The notes under the pieces are model-generated. The model saw only the letters and a program-made list of their open reading frames with translations, was not told the DNA's origin and did no database searches. A stretch of 64,000 nucleotides of DNA from Eledone cirrhosa (taxonomy: Eukaryota): assembly GCA_964016885.1 (NCBI GenBank), contig OZ024740.1:164114001-164178000 (forward strand). The letters run 5' to 3'. The translations under genes and the position numbers were made by a program. Numbering within the stretch: position 1 is the first letter of the stretch; each line of letters opens with the position of its first letter. Shown piece by piece: positions 7,129-62,015 of the stretch.

Positions 7129-7183
7129 ACTGCCTGAAGAGGTCACAGCCAAAGATGGCTGTCACCGAAATATATATAGCAGT
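7129..7183 (+). ncRNA. Type I hammerhead ribozyme (minimal)
   Basis: ACTGC-CTGAAGA-GGTCACAGCC aaagat GGCTGTCACC-GAAA-tatata-TA-GCAGT. Stem I 5 bp, stem II 9/10 bp, palindromic stem III, intact core. Confidence 0.8.
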
Positions 7184-27373: not shown

Positions 27374-29636
27374 CTAGACCACCCGTGACCCAACGGGTCA
27401 CGTTCACTTCAAAATATAAAAAAAAAATCATGTTCACTTAAAAATAATTTTTAAATAATTAAAATATATACAGACATGTATATAATGTAAAATGAAACTG
27501 GAAGGCCCATATATATATACGTGTGAGTATGTATATATATATATATATATATAGTGAAAACATGGACAGGAACAAAAACATAGAGGCAGTACAAATAAAA
27601 GTTTATTAGGTTCACGCTCTTGAGAGTATGTGTGTGTGTTGTTTCGAGCATAAGCCCTTCATCAGGAGAAAAGTGGGTAGGAAGAGAGTTCCGAGGGTGT
27701 GTGGGGGAGTGGTGGAGAGACATTTAGAAAAAAAGGGGGGGAGAGAAAAAACAGTGGAAGGGGTACAAATAAAAATAAAAATAAAAATAAACAAAGATAA
27801 ACAAGTGGTGGAAGGGTGTGAGGCGTGTAAGGGTGGTGGCTGGTGGAGTAGGGAGAGGGAGGCGGGGGTCCGAACGGGGAGGGCTGAAGGGGGTGTTTGT
27901 GTATGTGTGTAGATGTACGTGTGTGTGTGTGCGTGTGTATGTGAATGTGAGAGTTGGGGGAAGAACGAGGTTCCATGGTCAGGAAAAGGTGTGTGCGTGG
28001 GGTGGAGTGTAGGTCGGTGTGTGCGTGCGTGTTGATAGGGAGGGGTAAGAGGGGTGGGGGAGGAGGCTGGCGTGTAGATTCCGGAGGCTGAGTGTGTATA
28101 TGTGGGGGTACGCACGTGTGTGTTGGTGTTTATGCGTGGTATGGATGTGGATGGCGTGATTCGAAAAAACATTGTGAGTGTATGTCTGTGGGTAAGTTTC
28201 TAAGGTAGTTCCGTGGAGTGTGCGATGAGGGGCTGGACATTTTTCATGTTACGGAGTGGATAGCTGGAACGATGTGTTGGTGTGTGTTTGGATGAGTGTG
28301 TGTGTGGTAGAGAAGGTGTTAGTGGGTGTTAGTATACTGGTGGTGGGGAAAGGGTGGATGTGGGTGTGTAAGTGGGGGTTAGTGGTGGTTGGGTGTGTGG
28401 AGTGGGTGGTGTATGTAGGTGTAGGTGGGTGTGGGTGTGAAGTTGTGTGTTCGTGTGCGTGGGGTCGGGGATGTTAGTGATATTAGTTGTGGGGTGGTGG
28501 GAGTGGATGTGAGGGTTAGTGGTAGTAGGGTGTGTGGATAGTGTGAGTGCGTGTATATATGTACAGGTGGGTGTGTGCGTGATAGGGGGTGGGGTGGGGA
28601 TGTTAGTATTGTTAGATGGGGGAGGGTGGACGGGGGGTTGTTAGTATTGTTAGTTGGGGGAGGGGGGCCGGGGGGTTGTTAGTATTGTTAGTTGTGGGGT
28701 GGGTCACGGGGGTGGGGCGGTGAGAAGGAGGAGTGTGTTAGTGGTGTTAGTGGGAGATGTGTGTGTGTGGTGGGGGAGGTGGGAGGGGGAGGTCTGTAGG
28801 GTGAAGATGGTGCGCTGTTCGACCGTGAGGCGGGTGGTGGGTGTTCCGTGGCATTGGAGTAGGCCACAGACTGTGAGGTGGTGGGCGGAATGTCCTGGGG
28901 AGCCAAAGTGGCAGGCGATGGGGGACCTCCCGCCGAGTATAATATTGTTGTAATAATATTGCCAGAAATAATAACAGAATACACTGTTTGGTTGGTTTTC
29001 GCTTCTGTATATTTTATACCTCCATAGTTAATTAATTTGGTCATCAATGTTTATCACTGACTGACCAACGGTAAAAAATACAGATATAAATACATATATA
29101 TATTCTAACAAAGTTCTTTCGTTGCACATATGCAACATCATCAGTGGTACTATTATGTTTCCTCCTGTGGTATTGTATGTCTACGCCATTTTATATATAT
29201 GTATGTATGTATGTGTATGTATATATATGTGGGTGACTGTGATATATATATACACTGGTCATACACACACGCACATATACACACACACATATATACACAA
29301 CAACACCAGCAGCTCTCTCTTTCTCTCTGTTTCTCTCTTCCATTCTTCTTCTCTGTCACCTCTCCCTCTCTCTATGTCTCTATTTCAATCTACTCACTCA
29401 CAACCACTATCTCTTTATCTCTCCCTCTCTCTCTCTGTTTATGAAGGTACCCAGAAAACCCCCATATTCGGGAACTCAATTTACGCGAAACTTGTTTTAT
29501 TCCATTTGTATCCCCATTTCAGGGTCAACTTCCTTTCAAAGTAGTTTTCCATTATGCGCCCCTTTCGCTGTATTACCCTACAGACAAGCAAGCAAGGAAG
29601 CAAGCAAGCAATCACGGAGTTTTAGTAGTATATAGA
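27374..29636 (-). mobile_element. Non-autonomous Helitron carrying a nested insertion
   Basis: Minus strand begins A|TCTATATACTACTAAAACTC (29636) and ends with hairpin CGTGACCC-gtt-GGGTCACG plus GGTGGTCTAG|T (27374); AT target, no TSD. Confidence 0.75.
27553..29000 (-). mobile_element. GT-rich decayed element, possibly PLE-derived, with a disrupted hammerhead; ends at (TA)n inside the Helitron
   Basis: Minus strand CTGATGAA-GGGC ttat GCTC-GAAAC at 27641-27665, with stem III interrupted by a CA repeat; strong strand asymmetry. Confidence 0.5.
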
Positions 29637-34940: not shown

Positions 34941-35032
<92 letters not shown>

Positions 35033-35033
35033 G

Positions 35034-35064
<31 letters not shown>

Positions 35065-35279
35065 GTTAAGAATGTACATCCACATATGTATACTGAAATA
35101 CTAGTATGCATATGAATACACACACGTGTACATATGTAGATGTACCGAGTTTTTCACTGGTCACTTTACTGTGAGTGTCCAGCTATTCTGTATGTAAACA
35201 CACAGACAAACCGGTTTTTAGAGTCATACTGGTTTTTGAGGAAACACCTTTCCTCTATTCTCCAGAAAGCCAGACAAGG

Positions 35280-35324
35280 AATATTGGACTAGTTTCGATG
35301 TTGTTACATCTCATCAGCAATATT
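35280..35324 (-). ncRNA. Minimal type I hammerhead ribozyme, copy 1 (further minus-strand copies at 35746-35790, 36212-36256, 36678-36722, 37144-37188, 37610-37654, 38076-38120)
   Basis: Minus strand AATATTG-CTGATGA-GATGT aaca ACATC-GAAA-CTAG-TC-CAATATT. Stem I 7 bp, stem II 5 bp, palindromic ACTAGT stem III, GUC cleavage triplet. Confidence 0.93.
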
Positions 35325-38300
35325 TACCCATCTTCCGGCCTTTCTAGAGAATCGTAAAAGCACATATCGTTATATGCTTTTTCTATGAAAATTAGTAGTG
35401 GGCAGACTAATTTGCATAGAGCGTGAGTACGTACCGGTTCAACGGAGACGATAAAAACAAATAACGAAACGAAATTAAATTTTGTTTCGTTTGTAACTCA
35501 CTTTTGTATGACTGACGCTTAAACAATTAAGTTAAGAATGTACATCCACATATGTATACTGAAATACTAGTATGCATATGAATACACACACGTGTACATA
35601 TGTAGATGTACCGAGTTTTTCACTGGTCACTTTACTGTGAGTGTCCAGCTATTCTGTATGTAAACACACAGACAACCCGGTTTTTAGAGTCATACTGGTT
35701 TTTGAGGAAACACCTTTCCTCTATTCTCCAGAAAGCCAGACAAGGAATATTGGACTAGTTTCGATGTTGTTACATCTCATCAGCAATATTTACCCATCTT
35801 CCGGCCTTTCTAGAGAATCGTAAAAGCACATATCGTTATATGCTTTTTCTATGAAAATTAGTAGTGGGCAGACTAATTTGCATAGAGCGTGAGTACGTAC
35901 CGGTTCAACGGAGACGATAAAAACAAATAACGAAACGAAATTAAATTTTGTTTCGTTTGTAACTCACTTTTGTATGACTGACGCTTAAACAATTAAGTTA
36001 AGAATGTACATCCACATATGTATACTGAAATACTAGTATGCATATGAATACACACACGTGTACATATGTAGATGTACCGAGTTTTTCACTGGTCACTTTA
36101 CTGTGAGTGTCCAGCTATTCTGTATGTAAACACACAGACAAACCGGTTTTTAGAGTCATACTGGTTTTTGAGGAAACACCTTTCCTCTATTCTCCAGAAA
36201 GCCAGACAAGGAATATTGGACTAGTTTCGATGTTGTTACATCTCATCAGCAATATTTACCCATCTTCCGGCCTTTCTAGAGAATCGTAAAAGCACATATC
36301 GTTATATGCTTTTTCTATGAAAATTAGTAGTGGGCAGACTAATTTGCATAGAGCGTGAGTACGTACCGGTTCAACGGAGACGATAAAAACAAATAACGAA
36401 ACGAAATTAAATTTTGTTTCGTTTGTAACTCACTTTTGTATGACTGACGCTTAAACAATTAAGTTAAGAATGTACATCCACATATGTATACTGAAATACT
36501 AGTATGCATATGAATACACACACGTGTACATATGTAGATGTACCGAGTTTTTCACTGGTCACTTTACTGTGAGTGTCCAGCTATTCTGTATGTAAACACA
36601 CAGACAAACCGGTTTTTAGAGTCATACTGGTTTTTGAGGAAACACCTTTCCTCTATTCTCCAGAAAGCCAGACAAGGAATATTGGACTAGTTTCGATGTT
36701 GTTACATCTCATCAGCAATATTTACCCATCTTCCGGCCTTTCTAGAGAATCGTAAAAGTACATATCGTTATATGCTTTTTCTATGAAAATTAGTAGTGGG
36801 CAGACTAATTTGCATAGAGCGTGAGTACGTACCGGTTCAACGGAGACGATAAAAACAAATAACGAAACGAAATTAAATTTTGTTTCGTTTGTAACTCACT
36901 TTTGTATGACTGACGCTTAAACAATTAAGTTAAGAATGCACATCCACATATGTATACTGAAATACTAGTATGCATATGAATACACACACGTGTACATATG
37001 TAGATGTACCGAGTTTTTCACTGGTCACTTTACTGTGAGTGTCCAGCTATTCTGTATGTAAACACACAGACAAACCGGTTTTTAGAGTCATACTGGTTTT
37101 TGAGGAAACACCTTTCCTCTATTCTCCAGAAAGCCAGACAAGGAATATTGGACTAGTTTCGATGTTGTTACATCTCATCAGCAATATTTACCCATCTTCC
37201 GGCCTTTCTAGAGAATCGTAAAAGCACATATCGTTATATGCTTTTTCTATGAAAATTAGTAGTGGGCAGACTAATTTGCATAGAGCGTGAGTACGTACCG
37301 GTTCAACGGAGACGATAAAAACAAATAACGAAACGAAATTAAATTTTGTTTCGTTTGTAACTCACTTTTGTATGACTGACGCTTAAACAATTAAGTTAAG
37401 AATGCACATCCACATATGTATACTGAAATACTAGTATGCATATGAATACACACACGTGTACATATGTAGATGTACCGAGTTTTTCACTGGTCACTTTACT
37501 GTGAGTGTCCAGCTATTCTGTATGTAAACACACAGACAAACCGGTTTTTAGAGTCATACTGGTTTTTGAGGAAACACCTTTCCTCTATTCTCCAGAAAGC
37601 CAGACAAGGAATATTGGACTAGTTTCGATGTTGTTACATCTCATCAGCAATATTTACCCATCTTCCGGCCTTTCTAGAGAATCGTAAAAGCACATATCGT
37701 TATATGCTTTTTCTATGAAAATTAGTAGTGGGCAGACTAATTTGCATAGAGCGTGAGTACGTACCGGTTCAACGGAGACGATAAAAACAAATAACGAAAC
37801 GAAATTAAATTTTGTTTCGTTTGTAACTCACTTTTGTATGACTGACGCTTAAACAATTAAGTTAAGAATGTACATCCACATATGTATACTGAAATACTAG
37901 TATGCATATGAATACACACACGTGTACATATGTAGATGTACCGAGTTTTTCACTGGTCACTTTACTGTGAGTGTCCAGCTATTCTGTATGTAAACACACA
38001 GACAAACCGGTTTTTAGAGTCATACTGGTTTTTGAGGAAACACCTTTCCTCTATTCTCCAGAAAGCCAGACAAGGAATATTGGACTAGTTTCGATGTTGT
38101 TACATCTCATCAGCAATATTTACCCATCTTCCGGCCTTTCTAGAGAATCGTAAAAGCACATATCGTTATATGCTTTTTCTATGAAAATTAGTAGTGGGCA
38201 GACTAATTTGCATAGAGCGTGAGTACGTCATACAAAAGTGAGTTACAAACGAAACAAAATTTAATTTCGTTTCGTTATTTGTTTTTATCGTCTCCGTTGA

Positions 38301-38571
38301 ACCGGTACGTACTCACGCTCTATGCAAATTAGTCTGCCCACTACTAATTTTCATAGAAAAAGCATATAACGATATGTGCGTCAGTCATACAAAAGTGAGT
38401 TACAAACGAAACAAAATTTAATTTCGTTTCGTTATTTGTTTTTATCGTCTCCGTTGAACCGGTACGTACTCACGCTCTATGCAAATTAGTCTGCCCACTA
38501 CTAATTTTCATAGAAAAAGCATATAACGATATGTGCTTTTACGATTCTCTAGAAAGGCCGGAAGATGGGTA

Positions 38572-38616
38572 AATATTGCTGATGAGATGTAACAACATCG
38601 AAACTAGTCCAATATT
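38572..38616 (+). ncRNA. Minimal type I hammerhead ribozyme, inverted copy 8
   Basis: aatattgCTGATGAgatgtaacaacatcGAAActagTCcaatatt; predicted cleavage after 38609. Confidence 0.93.
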
Positions 38617-39037
38617 CCTTGTCTGGCTTTCTGGAGAATAGAGGAAAGGTGTTTCCTCAAAAACCAGTATGACTCTAAAAACCGGTTTGTCTGTGTGTTT
38701 ACATACAGAATAGCTGGACACTCACAGTAAAGTGACCAGTGAAAAACTCGGTACATCTACATATGTACACGTGTGTGTATTCATATGCATACTAGTATTT
38801 CAGTATACATATGTGGATGTACATTCTTAACTTAATTGTTTAAGCGTCAGTCATACAAAAGTGAGTTACAAACGAAACAAAATTTAATTTCGTTTCGTTA
38901 TTTGTTTTTATCGTCTCCGTTGAACCGGTACGTACTCACGCTCTATGCAAATTAGTCTGCCCACTACTAATTTTCATAGAAAAAGCATATAACGATATGT
39001 GCTTTTACGATTCTCTAGAAAGGCCGGAAGATGGGTA

Positions 39038-39082
39038 AATATTGCTGATGAGATGTAACAACATCGAAACTAGTCCAATATT
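39038..39082 (+). ncRNA. Minimal type I hammerhead ribozyme, inverted copy 9
   Basis: Identical to 38572-38616, 466 bp downstream. Confidence 0.93.
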
Positions 39083-39370
39083 CCTTGTCTGGCTTTCTGG
39101 AGAATAGAGGAAAGGTGTTTCCTCAAAAACCAGTATGACTCTAAAAACCGGTTTGTCTGTGTGTTTACATACAGAATAGCTGGACACTCACAGTAAAGTG
39201 ACCAGTGAAAAACTCGGTACATCTACATATGTACACGTGTGTGTATTCATATGCATACTAGTATTTCAGTATACATATGTGGATGTACATTCTTAACTTA
39301 ATTGTTTAAGCGTCAGTCATACAAAAGTGAGTTACAAACGAAACAAAATTTAATTTCGTTTCGTTATTTG

Positions 39371-39413
<43 letters not shown>

Positions 39414-48124: not shown

Positions 48125-50692
<2,568 letters not shown>

Positions 50693-52512
50693 TCAGCAGA
50701 ACAGTGAGCATCAAGAATGTTTAAGTCCACTGCAGCGAAATTTGAAAGACTACTGAAAGGCGTTTAATGTAGTACTCTACTATTTCACTTGGACTCAGGA
50801 CGTAAAAGGGTGAATTTTAATATTGTCAATAATCAGTAAATACTGATTATAAACTGAGGACGTGTATAATGTATAATTTATAATGTCCTCAGTATATTAC
50901 TACTTTTTATCTTATTGACTCCAGAGGATCGAAAGACAAAATCAATGCTGGATCTATTTTAAAGTCAGAATGTAAAAGGAAGTAACTATAAAAACAATAC
51001 AAATTCTGTCAAGCTGTTGCCTTGATTTTGTTAACTCTCTAACTATGATATCAAATAACTTATGTATTAGGAAAGAACTCAGACGATTAAATCAATTCGA
51101 GTACTTGACTGCTACGCTTATACTGCCAGCCTTGAAAGACGAAAAGAGACGTCAACTTAGAATATCAAGAGACAGTAACTAATTGTTGCACACAGTTCGT
51201 CCGGTGCACTACCGATTCTACCATCCACTGCTACCAAAAGAACATTTATTCTGTGAGTACATTAGTTCTTTAAGATTCAAATGTACCCAAATTACAATTT
51301 ATAGACATCAGCCTCAGTACGATACAATATCTAAGGCGGCGAATTGGCAAACCCGGTAGAACGTCGGGTCGAATGTCTTGCGCTGTGACTTCTTTTATCT
51401 CTTTTTTTCACTGGATAGTACATATAATTCCAGCTTTGTCACATATTTGTATCATGCTAACTCGGCCTGAGAATTACGCTAAGGGCATGGTTGTGGGGTA
51501 CTCAGCCACACACACGTTAATTTCACGAGTAGAGATTTAGTTCGTCGAAAATCAAACAAACAAATAAAAGACAAAACAAAACAAAAACAAAAACAAAAAC
51601 AAAAACAAAAAAAAACTGAATGTTCATCGCCAAAACGACGGAGAATATACTTTGTCACTCGAAATATCAGAAAGTCCCTGCCGTTGGTTTAATATTTAAT
51701 AAACACATGATCACAACATAGGAGGGTTGGAATGAAGTTGATAAAATCGACTCTAGTACTTTACTAATGCTTATTTTGTCACTTCTCAGAAGGATGAAAG
51801 TTAATGTATAATCCAACGATTTGAAATGAGATGCTATTTAACACCGGAATCATATACAATCCAGGAGGCCAATGTAATGAAATTAGTACACAATATTTAA
51901 GTTGAATTTTCAGACACGAATTAATAGACTGTTAGTGTCACCTTTTCAATCCATTTGTAACATTTTCCACCACCATGAATCGTATTTAATTAAATTATGA
52001 AAACATTTCTCTATTTACAAAAACCATGTCAAATCATAATAAATATTTTATACTGATAATGTTCTTTCAGGTGGCGAATTGACAGTGTCATTAGAACGTC
52101 GGATAGAATACGCGTGGTTGCGTTTTGACTCTCTGCGACTGGGTCTCTCCCTCAGATGACAACTTTGCATGTCATCCTTTCGCGGTCAATAAATAAAGTA
52201 GTAATCTAGTACTGGGGTCGATTCTTACTCAATATCGTTTTTTTCATTTCCACTCTCTCATTTTCTTCTGGAAAGAAACCAATTGTATTCAGTCGCCAGA
52301 TTTTTGTTTACATTCACAAAATAAGATTACATTTTATTTTATTTAGATTGTTCACGTTCGTCATTCTGTTCATAAACACACACATGAATTATTTAAATCT
52401 ATGTTCGTCTCAGAGTTATTTTGCTTGTAACAGCTTTCGTACTCAAGCAAATTAGTACGTTGTGTACAAAATAAAAATCACTGATCAAACAGATCTCAGA
52501 GGAAATGTATCA

Positions 52513-52543
52513 CTGATGAGATCTAATAACATCGAAACATGTC
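52513..52543 (+). ncRNA. Hammerhead core relic resembling the 466-bp array hammerhead
   Basis: CTGATGA-GAT ctaataac ATC-GAAA-CATG-TC; palindromic ACATGT stem III; no stem I found. Confidence 0.55.
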
Positions 52544-59532: not shown

Positions 59533-60324
59533 TATTAAATAAAATGTATTTCTCTTTTTAACATAACGGGGGGGGGGGGTGATTTAAACGAGATTTGGCT
59601 GCTATTTCTAACCTTTGGAGTGATAAGTAGGAATTTCTCGGAGTAAGGTCAAATATTGTTTTTAGAAAATATTATTAATGCTTGAACCAACCATTGTTAA
59701 AGAAAATGAAATGTTTTCCCTTGCCAAAACTCAGAACGTTCCTGTTTCTATAAGTATTCACAAATTGATTACAGAATTCATATTATCCGCTTTCAATTTT
59801 ACAAATATGCAATCCTAAATCTAAACGAATACAATTTTTATATATGTGCTCCTGTGTATATTCATTTTTATAATGGTAGACTTCCGGCACTTCTGTGGCT
59901 CCTCAACTAGAAATAGAAACTAATTCTCAAATCAAATTCCTATCACTTAGAATAAAGAAGGATATGATATAGTGGACAATGTAGTCCTCGAAATACACAA
60001 GATGGATTTTGCTGTGGAGAAATGCGTAGAAATGATCAGTGAGAGCAATGTTGAATTCCGTGGGATTGATACTAGTGAGCTGGGACTCCTACTTAAACTT
60101 ACTTATAGTAATAACTATCTAGATACATACGACCTTAGCAACCTGTGCCCTACAAGACCAGCAAGAGGCAGACCACCTACCATTACCTCAATGGCTAAGA
60201 AAACCCACACAGATAGATGCAACGGGTGGACCAGAGCAATACGGACCCCCGAAAACCACGATGAACTAAAGAAAATGATTGCACATGCGGTGGGGCCAGT
60301 ATAAAATTAACCCTTAAGGAACAT

Positions 60325-61629
60325 ATGTTCAAATTTAATGGAAAAACATATGCCCAAGAGGAGGGAGCAGCCATTGGTGTTAGCATTGCAGGTGACATAG
60401 CTAACCTATTCATGGTATGGTGGGACAATAGACTTAAACTTAAATTTAAAGAACAATTAGAAGACAGCAACCTCTTAACCCTGATAATGTACTTCCGCTA
60501 CGTTGATGATATAAACATCGTAGTAAAAACACACCCACTAGAGAACAGTCAGGAATTAGAGAAAAACACCATGGAAAGCATCCAGAAAATAGCTAACTCC
60601 ATCCACCAGAGTATTAGAGTTACTATAGACTACCCAAGCAAACACCCCAACCATCGATTACCTGTACTAGACACAGAGCTCTGGTTAGATACTATCAATA
60701 ACAAACAACAGATCCTCCATTCCCATTATGCCAAACCCATGACTTCCAAATACCTGATCCACCGAAACTCAGCTGTTCCGGACCACACCCAAATCAACAT
60801 ACTGATTGCGGATTTGGTACGGGTGATGAGAAACGTGTCCCGCATGTGCCACCCCAAAGAACTAGAGAGACACATACAACACTTCATCCACCGTATGCAG
60901 TTCTCTGGCTACAATCAGAGAGATAAGATCAGAGTATATAGAGGAGCCAGAACCAAATGGGAAAAAATGGTAAATAATGATACAAATGGGACCTGCCCCT
61001 TGTACAGGAGCACATTTTGGAATAGAATAGAAAGAACTAGGAATAAAGTTCATAGAATAAACTCATGGTATGATAGCAATAAATACCAGAGTGTTATGTT
61101 CATCAATACAACCTCTAGAGGCGAATTAGCTTACAAATTCAGAAGGGCCCTAGATAAACATAAACTCAATATTAAGATAGTAGAAAGACCAGGTACCTCC
61201 ATAAAAACACTTATTAGCAATACATACCCTTTTCAAAGACCTCCCTGTATAGATAAGAAATGTATAATCTGTAAATTAAGCCCCCATATTAACTGTAAAA
61301 CTAGAAATGTAGTATATAGCATAAGATGTACTGAAGGACAATGTAGAGATAAGAATATAGTGTACATAGGTGAGACAGCTCGTAGTATAGGAGAACGGAT
61401 AAATGAACACTGGCGAGAGCTTCAAGATAGTAAAGAATCATCTGTACTCTACCAACATGCTAAAATAGAACATAAGGGTAAATTACAGAACATAGAAATG
61501 AAAATAGAGTCTACACACAGAAAAGACGCAATGTTTAGACAAATCACAGAGGCAATAAACATAAATGAACTACAACCAAAATTAAATAGAAAGCATGAAT
61601 GGAATAGCAACATCACAACTTATAATTAA
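60325..61629 (+). CDS. PLE reverse transcriptase + GIY-YIG endonuclease, C-terminal 434 aa (upstream part in ORF 59972-60304, frameshift near 60300)
   Basis: FKFNGKTYAQEEGAAIG, YFRYVDDI, LPVLD, linker CIDKKCIIC, NVVYSIRC...VYIGETARSIGERINEH, RQITEAINI...PKLN. Confidence 0.9.
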   Translation: MFKFNGKTYAQEEGAAIGVSIAGDIANLFMVWWDNRLKLKFKEQLEDSNLLTLIMYFRYVDDINIVVKTHPLENSQELEKNTMESIQKIANSIHQSIRVTIDYPSKHPNHRLPVLDTELWLDTINNKQQILHSHYAKPMTSKYLIHRNSAVPDHTQINILIADLVRVMRNVSRMCHPKELERHIQHFIHRMQFSGYNQRDKIRVYRGARTKWEKMVNNDTNGTCPLYRSTFWNRIERTRNKVHRINSWYDSNKYQSVMFINTTSRGELAYKFRRALDKHKLNIKIVERPGTSIKTLISNTYPFQRPPCIDKKCIICKLSPHINCKTRNVVYSIRCTEGQCRDKNIVYIGETARSIGERINEHWRELQDSKESSVLYQHAKIEHKGKLQNIEMKIESTHRKDAMFRQITEAININELQPKLNRKHEWNSNITTYN

Positions 61630-61828
61630 GGACAAAATGAAAACACACACACACATAGAACAAACAACTCACCAGTAACATGTAAATAAACAAATAAATA
61701 AACAAATATAAATACACACAGACACCCGGATGTAACACATGCGCAAACTAAGCACACAACACACGCAAACACAAGATGGCGTAGGACAGAACAAAGGAGA
61801 GACACAAAAACAAAGAAAAGAATCCCCA

Positions 61829-61871
61829 GTCACTGAAGAGGTCACAGAATTTGTGACGAAAGAACTTTGAC
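61829..61871 (+). ncRNA. PLE pseudo-LTR hammerhead ribozyme (minimal type I)
   Basis: GTCA-CTGAAGA-g-GTCACA gaatt TGTGAC-GAAA-gaac-TT-TGAC; the sister copy at ~46285 has TA at the cleavage site. Confidence 0.8.
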
Positions 61872-62015
61872 AATATATGAACAATCGTCTGGTTGTGGAA
61901 CCAACCAACCGGAAATTTATAAATTTAATTTATAATAAATTGAAGTGAAAGCAACTGGTGCGTGTGTTTCTTATTGGCAACATGACCCTCCCAAAGTATA
62001 ACAATATATATATAT

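Follow-up and report, generated by a model that had tools for sequence, protein, structure and literature searches.

The 466-bp hammerhead repeats in the window, a stretch of 64,000 nucleotides of the Eledone cirrhosa genome (contig OZ024740.1, positions 164,114,001 to 164,178,000), belong to a non-autonomous non-LTR retrozyme that was probably inserted by a (TA)n-targeting PLE protein, through twin priming with a circular monomer as template for rolling-circle reverse transcription. Non-LTR retrozymes are a known kind of element, whereas the two-armed layout found here is undescribed in the available literature. This layout, with its two fixed 3' ends in (TA)n, links the family to PLEs and is informative on array formation. 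It suggests that a PLE-type enzyme copies a small RNA circle repeatedly from both cut strands.

Nine identical hammerhead motifs in one tandem array of 466-bp units had been predicted. The unit (GC 36%) and the nine motifs were borne out, whereas the single head-to-tail run was not: a minus arm of 6.8 units and a plus arm of 2.1 units point apart with a 153-bp jump between them, and each terminates in (TA)n. All nine full units carry a type I hammerhead of 45 nt (two on the plus strand, seven on the minus), and four single-base differences occur across the whole array. With unit numbering taken from window positions 38378–38843 (+), arm B occupies 35059–38228 on the minus strand, from an inner end at unit base 87 to a 3' end at unit base 460 (site B, position 35059). 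Its seven hammerheads lie at 35280–35324, 35746–35790, 36212–36256, 36678–36722, 37144–37188, 37610–37654 and 38076–38120, with predicted cuts at 35287, 35753, 36219, 36685, 37151, 37617 and 38083 respectively. Arm A (38378–39377, plus strand, 2.15 units) has its 3' end at unit base 68 (site A, position 39377) and contains hammerheads at 38572–38616 and 39038–39082; the predicted cuts after 38609 and 39075 delimit a 466-nt monomer, 38610–39075. The central junction is formed by a template-jump piece of 153 bp (38227–38379, plus strand, unit 7–159), with a 2-base overlap at either joint. The 69–74 bases between site B (unit 460–465) and site A (unit 68) constitute a 'tail', which in arm A spans 39304–39377 (+) and includes a hairpin at 39337–39365. 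The (TA)n tracts said to border the array were found at 34942–35059 and 39375–39413, of which 34942–35058 and 39378–39413 are the left and right halves of the target. Also as predicted, the array has no credible ORF, the longest ATG ORF of the unit multimer being 50 aa and antisense.

Matches to a loose hammerhead core pattern are more numerous in the window than expected by chance, 40 against 5.5 in shuffled sequences, with several matches per site. A search with type I hammerhead models, proposed as a check on the original prediction, yielded Rfam HH9 over 38561–38632 with 37.3 bits and an E-value of 2.6e-8 in a 201-base search, a score below the gathering score of 52; at gathering thresholds, Rfam gave no match in the whole window. 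The description of the motif as minimal had to be dropped, as it aligns with the HH9 consensus in both its stem I bulge and its stem II loop. Judged by sequence, the ribozyme is canonical type I and HH9-like, not of the minimal PLE type. Stem III consists of 1 bp closed by a loop and lies within the self-complementary ACUAGU, for which a palindromic duplex of -4.8 kcal/mol was computed. Because stem III is 1 bp and palindromic, the hammerhead probably cleaves as a dimer. A point against the scheme is that, of nine Xenopus retrozyme dimers, only one was cleaved in vitro (10.64898/2026.07.22.740005). The predicted monomer folds at -152.8 kcal/mol in linear form (z -10.0), with its ends paired in stem I, and reaches z -7.7 when folded as a circle. 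Linear and circular RNAs of 466 nt would be produced from the unit. Contigs were compared for four of the six sequencing runs listed, none of which is on record as RNA; such contigs carry no information on strand, ends or circularity. The unit appeared as a single contig of 495 (X5) or 497 bases (X6) and as two abutting pieces (X4), forms that would be the same for a circle as for a tandem array.

Across the genome, 9,294 matches to the hammerhead core were found, and retrozyme loci are spread over many contigs. Exact site A followed by (TA)n occurs 1,835 times, against none for the control; the 1,749 matches to site B are partly overlapping and thus do not give the number of loci. In the loci examined, unit sequence is all that is present, with no coding capacity and no sign of LTRs, and their central junctions differ from one another, save in one segmental duplication. 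Internal divergence is 0.06% or less in 11 of 66 well-covered loci. Thirteen core positions are invariant between loci, and in stem II an A-U pair is replaced by U-A (48 versus 41 locus consensuses). Fixed changes between loci kept pairs in 20 of 35 cases, compared with 65 of 260 singletons that arose after insertion (p 2e-4), in a test that took the structure from one copy and in which related loci are not independent. In addition, a distant relative in L211 holds stem I by compensatory changes and has kept the palindrome. By this comparison between loci, the hammerhead core and the pairing of the RNA are under selection. The assignment to a young non-LTR retrozyme family is upheld by the dispersed tandem units, the selected intact core, the lack of an ORF, the stable fold and the near-uniform loci.

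The layout is stereotyped at about 100 loci: the outer end of one arm is usually unit base 68 and that of the other unit base 460–465. Divergent junctions in 99 loci joined A+B arms in 57 of 70 cases, B+B in one and A+A in none, the other 12 having a damaged or cut-off end; the junction, arm-length and breakpoint counts exclude the window and L105, which duplicates L104. The first 100 loci all lie on contig C1, and 80 were picked by their A or B end pattern, so that (TA)n at the ends is partly built into the selection of those 80. Both end types also run into (TA)n in loci picked without regard to their ends, and such loci were A+B in 24 of 28 cases and never A+A or B+B (19 found by hammerhead with both ends seen, nine by DNA search). 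A target-site duplication, if present, would be hidden within the (TA)n. In independent contigs of run X1, the switch from unit to TA sequence likewise falls at unit base 68, 460 or 465. The B+B combination was seen in L160, which was deliberately picked, and in L157, which has four arms and contains the one convergent joint, against 70 divergent junctions. Among single-arm loci, the partner arm was absent in 11 of 21; arms shorter than about 30 bases escape BLAST and were tallied separately.

Paired ends of this type are shared with an autonomous PLE family of the window. Its copies run into (TA)n at either of two sites, with 60 bases between them, and both end types are paired in all four two-ended loci. 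The PLE protein of the window gave only a weak Pfam RVT_1 match (E 0.0015), while Pfam gave no match for seven other window ORFs or for the L162 ORF. Despite the common target and end pairing, the unit showed no homology to this PLE family (z -0.3 and 0.5). Sequence matches of the unit to a PLE were likewise absent among 33 RT-selected and 30 GIY-YIG-selected loci, as was homology to the 3' regions of 30 GIY-YIG loci (taken from 150 scored matches, a small part of 10,595 candidates). One abundant family of GIY-YIG loci ends in a short T-rich motif that resembles site A and is too short to count. An Atlas search provided clusters with GIY-YIG, RVT_1 and HTH_animal as leads, and a PDB sequence search returned no relevant match.

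Arms exceed one unit in 90 of 144 cases, although most are shorter than two, and 102 of 127 cross the predicted ribozyme cut site. Inner breakpoints ignore the ribozyme cut: seven of 160 fall at unit 226–240 (5.2 expected), and a wider window after the cut site (unit 226–262) contains 18 against 12.7 expected, a mild excess. No indels were found at unit 228–233 in 377 passes. Taken together, arm lengths, crossings of the cut site and breakpoints favour a template without an end. The two arms meet through microhomology, with an overlap of at least two bases in 24 of 40 insert-free joints, where chance would give 18% (p 3e-9). Another 30 junctions were scored as 'insert', and in some of them a mismatch may have halted extension early.

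These breakpoints bear on a rather unlikely reading, in which young source arrays were read through into long linear RNAs, a PLE performed twin priming on these while they were still uncut, and circles, if any, were a by-product. A PLE protein had uncut RNA as its main substrate in vitro, and the ribozyme site of that PLE was not an end point of any RNA-seq reads (PMC11167929). The 1-bp stem III may also mean slow monomer cleavage, and an array of at least 20 units does occur (L165). Linear templates of about 20 units predict only 8–15 of 160 breakpoints, with which the data are compatible. However, 16–29 extra breakpoints at the cut site would be expected from linear 10-mers whose 5' end is fixed, and largest-window tests showed no run-off peak along the unit (p 0.52, 0.10 and 0.06). 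Also, variants are not shared in mirror fashion between arms (0.80% versus 0.92%, 33 loci, p 0.37), the arms that would have to act as sources are mostly shorter than two units, and the 11 internally uniform loci of the 66 carry ten different variants, 3–52 positions apart, each fixed through a whole young array.

The variants point to one template per locus. Divergence is 0.91% within arms and 0.87% between them (38 loci, p 0.58), compared with 5.1% to other loci; the value for the window is inflated, as its alignment ran into the 153-bp piece. Growth in place by unequal crossing-over, after PLE ends or short copies had been inserted, is favoured in the Discussion of 10.64898/2026.07.22.740005, as far as that source is available, and is considered improbable here. 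Unequal exchange needs at least one unit to start, while inner ends are arbitrary and more than half of the arms are already longer than that; furthermore, no arm-specific homogenization was detected in the 38 loci, and the variants within loci are mainly singletons (159 against 19 shared). What growth in place does explain are the block duplications of the long arrays, with shared variants following a period of four in L169 and L164 and of two in L128 and being scattered in L165, and the lower divergence within (1.38%) than between arms (2.17%) in L039. Two adjacent units in the window share variants as well. Long arrays thus change length after insertion too, and because of these blocks a uniform long array need not have been long at birth.

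An inverted arm could also arise if one cDNA or RNA folded back and primed its own copying, as in the self-priming model given in the available part of PMC3846280, or as a long-read hairpin artefact, and a few junctions do lie within local palindromes (L069, L128 and L132). After fold-back, the two arms should be equal in length, share one type of outer end and match at their inner ends. Instead, A and B ends are paired, arm lengths within a locus are uncorrelated (rho 0.18, p 0.17, 57 loci), and the distance between the two inner ends is at most 30 bases in 10 of 70 cases against 9.2 expected; the outer ends recur in run X1. Both readings are largely refuted by end pairing, arm lengths and inner-end spacing, and are very improbable. 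Equally remote is amplification at the DNA level with the ribozyme as passenger, whether as a satellite or as a rolling-circle element (Helitron-like or through extrachromosomal circles). DNA circles would also yield uniform multimers without a stop at the ribozyme site but would leave unexplained both the selection on core and pairing and the two outward fixed 3' ends in (TA)n, as in the resident PLE.

Under the preferred reading, PLE-driven insertion from an RNA circle, read-through transcripts would be cut to 466-nt monomers, most likely by a double hammerhead paired via the palindromic stem III, and a host ligase would circularize them, by analogy with other retrozymes. The putative PLE protein would bind the tail region, nick both (TA)n strands and prime reverse transcription twice, once per strand, at unit base 68 and at 460–465, the positions of the observed ends. 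The cDNA would then go round the circle until the enzyme falls off, the observed lengths having a median of about 600 bases and often amounting to several turns. Joining of the two cDNA 3' ends via microhomology, often with small inserts or jumps, would give the two divergent arms observed, and unequal exchange would later add or remove unit blocks in long arrays, as seen in a few loci. More tentatively, a PLE dimer may run two reverse transcriptases simultaneously on one RNA circle (double rolling circle), each with its own strand and its own site, and the host would join the cDNAs.

The return of retrozymes to the genome and the inverted, tailed insertions of PLEs are both described as open in the available text of PMC7761336, PMC8557442 and 10.64898/2026.07.22.740005. 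PLE copying of a small RNA circle has been proposed for such elements, and a demonstration was not found in the available literature. The present family supplies the target, the run-length distribution and the exact base of either start site, so that mobilization of retrozyme circles by PLEs can be put to a defined test in vitro with an existing PLE assay. The same end analysis offers a quick check for axolotl, coral, mussel and frog assemblies. If the proposal is true, this is a natural case in which circular RNA entered a eukaryotic genome as multimers. If the double rolling circle is true, the arrays are a genomic footprint of retrotransposition from circular RNA. The process might then also explain why autonomous PLEs show partial tandems, inverted pLTRs and tails, and might apply to animal retrozymes generally.

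Animal non-LTR retrozymes were described by Cervera and de la Pena (2020; PMC7229834) and Li et al. (2026; 10.64898/2026.07.22.740005). As far as these sources are available, the present family resembles them in its tandem units, which are non-coding and low in GC and contain a single canonical type I hammerhead, as well as in its thousands of dispersed copies, its self-paired fold and the PLEs in the same genome. Its stem III is like that of axolotl HHR_Amex1, which has one pair and a palindromic tetraloop and works as a dimer (PMC7229834; 10.64898/2026.07.22.740005). The 466-nt unit is above the 170–400 nt given in PMC7229834 and inside the 51–972 bp of 10.64898/2026.07.22.740005. Tandem cDNA from a circle was already proposed (PMC7229834), whereas divergent arms, two fixed reverse-transcription starts, the tail and the (TA)n target are not described in the available parts of either paper. 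For Xenopus retrozymes, pLTR homology was reported and growth by unequal crossing-over favoured (10.64898/2026.07.22.740005); in contrast, no pLTR homology was found here among the PLE loci compared, and the arrays look made at insertion.

PLE insertions, as available in PMC8557442 and PMC3846280, have an inverted pLTR and a 'tail at one end', and share with the present family head-to-head inverted arms, 5' truncation, a single-end tail and an AT-rich or (TA)n target. In Anolis Poseidon, the tail was traced to two start sites of reverse transcription, both strands being cut and extended (PMC11167929), which resembles the internal start at two nearby sites here. The tail is 69–74 bases here, 60 in the resident PLE and 30–40 in the available descriptions of PLE insertions. 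The present family also differs from PLE insertions in having no ORF, a canonical instead of a minimal ribozyme, and arms that are multimers of unit-length sequence running through the ribozyme site. In L1 twin priming, two primings on one RNA, one per strand, likewise lead to arm inversion and a joint with microhomology. There, reverse transcription begins first at the poly(A) end and then at a variable position, and a single linear RNA is divided between the arms. The present family has two fixed internal starts instead, and either arm may hold the whole unit several times.

The 466-bp period of the array, its nine hammerhead motifs, the (TA)n on both flanks and the lack of an ORF in the unit are as the original prediction described them. 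The repeats are tandem, but they do not form the single run proposed. Instead, a minus-strand arm of 6.8 units (35059-38228), running from unit base 460 back to 87 when numbering starts at window position 38378 (+), is joined through a 153-bp plus-strand piece (unit 7-159) to a plus-strand arm of 2.15 units (38378-39377) that ends at unit base 68. The two arms are divergent, each 3' end entering (TA)n, and 4 bases in total vary across all window unit copies.

The 3.0-Gb genome holds 9,294 matches to the hammerhead core, including known variants, and the end pattern in which unit base 68 gives way to (TA)n has 1,835 exact matches. One hundred loci were fetched on one contig: 20 by exact hammerhead, 60 by an arm 3' end at unit base 68 (site A) and 20 by an end at unit 460-465 (site B). 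Eleven long or young arrays were added. In this sample, drawn mostly from one contig and with 80 of the first 100 loci picked by end pattern, 99 loci contained 70 divergent junctions, of which 57 were A+B, 1 was B+B, none was A+A and 12 had a damaged or cut-off end. Among loci picked regardless of ends, A+B was found in 24 of 28. Site-B loci taken in order (n=19) had an A partner in 16 cases and no partner in 2, and one was a four-armed B-to-B locus. Twenty-one loci appeared single-armed; in 10 of these there is in fact a partner arm, though a very short one, and 11 lack any. The same three exits from the unit into TA were present in a sequencing run, X1. Two loci 17.7 kb from each other (L104 and L105) carry the identical two-armed insertion, which probably reflects a segmental duplication.

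Relatives of the unit were also found. An older one (L211:2560-3100, minus strand), also with an inverted arm and with a GUA triplet, shares roughly 70-76% identity with the unit in BLAST-aligned parts; its stem I is kept through compensatory changes, as is the palindrome. A decayed, distant relative at window 52284-52543 (+), with z about 7, is colinear up to the cut site and has the stem III palindrome ACAUGU against ACUAGU in the unit; no close copy of it was found. In runs X4, X5 and X6, from three other organisms and with run type not on record, the unit is present, mostly at ≥95% identity, with one dominant unit-length assembly each.

At gathering level, Rfam gave no match in the window. 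HH9 matched the window hammerhead with an E value of 2.6e-8, and the alignment spans the stem I bulge and stem II loop, which makes this a canonical type I motif and not the minimal hammerhead first proposed. Stem III consists of a single pair closed by a loop, within the self-complementary ACUAGU. Its formation in the monomer is computed to cost ~6 kcal/mol, and palindrome pairing with a second copy to yield -4.8 kcal/mol. Since axolotl retrozymes with the same stem III cleave well only as dimers, according to the accessible text of PMC7229834, we infer that the window ribozyme would act as a double hammerhead.

Comparison among loci indicates that the retrozyme RNA is under selection. Thirteen core positions are invariant between loci, GUC and GUU both occur as the cut triplet, and a stem II A-U pair is exchanged for U-A (48 vs 41 of 89 locus consensuses). 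With the structure taken from one copy and the loci related to one another, variable sites avoid paired positions (37/75, p 0.003), and pairing is kept in 20 of 35 between-locus fixed changes against 65 of 260 post-insertion singletons (p 2e-4). The fold z is -10.0 for the monomer and -7.7 for the circular form.

A 5'-truncated Penelope-like element (PLE) lies at 60265-62007 (+), with a 454-aa ORF from RT to GIY-YIG (60265-61629), its own minimal-type hammerhead at 61833 and a tail-less end in (TA)n. It belongs to a very abundant family in which ORFs exceed 1,200 aa and an insert rich in Asn and Thr is present. Two end sites in (TA)n, separated by 60 bases, are used by this family (17 and 13 ends, 33 loci); in 4 of 4 two-ended loci one end site is paired with the other. 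In PLE insertions, as described in the available parts of PMC8557442 and PMC3846280, the arms are inverted and 5'-truncated, and just one of the two ends carries a tail. This tail is the interval separating two internal RT start sites, and the PLE protein, a predicted dimer, cuts and extends both strands (PMC11167929). Since these features match the retrozyme layout, the retrozyme bears the insertion signature of PLE machinery, and insertion by PLE twin priming is very probable on the genomic evidence. No unit homology marking a partner PLE was found in the window PLE family or in 30 GIY-YIG loci; according to the accessible text of PMC7761336, the helper element is not indicated by any conserved motif.

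At three loci (L043, L050, L152) retrozyme arrays lie directly in the (TA)n where PLE copies end, a common target being the probable reason. A sister PLE family, present there and in L158, has a hammerhead-like motif at its 3' end at window 29106-29144 (-). Another family's motif occurs at 7134-7178 (+), ~45 bases ahead of a (TA)n tract, and at least two further such families, whose stem III regions are AT-rich and palindromic, were seen in random flanks (L022, L086, L102, L115, L130, L140, L143, L144, L146, L148). A 194-bp SINE-like repeat forms a tandem pair at window 49395-49794.

Divergence is 0.91% within arms, 0.87% between arms (38 loci, p 0.58) and 5.1% to other loci. Variants are 159 singleton and 19 shared; sharing in mirror arrangement by the two arms was not seen (33 loci, p 0.37). 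Median lengths are alike for both arm kinds (567 and 563), and 90 of 144 arms exceed one unit. Very long uncut precursors are a less likely template for the arrays. In PMC11167929 uncut RNA was the main substrate of the PLE protein, and breakpoints here show a mild excess (18 vs 12.7) over unit 226-262, just past the cut site. In vitro, 1 of 9 Xenopus retrozyme dimers cleaved, according to the available text of Li et al. (10.64898/2026.07.22.740005). Internally uniform arrays, of up to 17.9 units, make up 11 of 66 well-covered loci and carry ten different variants, so every array went through one unit-length sequence. Later block duplications in long arrays mean that part of the array length arose in place; one locus of about 31 units, nearly all in the B arm (L054 with L165, G000:C1:5738085-5752753), has variants common to even-numbered units. 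Were the template linear with a fixed 5' end, 16-29 of 160 inner breakpoints would be expected at that end for 10-mers, or 8-15 for 20-mers; no peak was found at the cut site (7/160 vs 5.2 expected) or at other positions. The absence of any indel at the cut site in 377 passes argues against jumps between cut monomers. Junctions show microhomology in 24 of 40 (18% by chance) and apparent inserts in 30 of 70. A fold-back origin of the inverted arms was rejected. A circular template is, on the genomic evidence, the likely source of the arrays.

A literature search, mostly without subscription papers or the supplements of PMC7229834 and the 2026 preprint, found no two-armed, fixed-end retrozyme arrays and no cephalopod retrozyme family. 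By every testable feature the element is a retrozyme. The cysteine motif before GIY-YIG in the window PLE resembles that of Neptune and Nematis in the accessible text of PMC8557442, a motif-level likeness, and stem III of the unit is like that of axolotl retrozymes in the available part of PMC7229834. The retrozyme model and the PLE insertion signature have each been published, separately; the two-armed, fixed-end layout offers genomic evidence for PLE twin priming together with a circular template.
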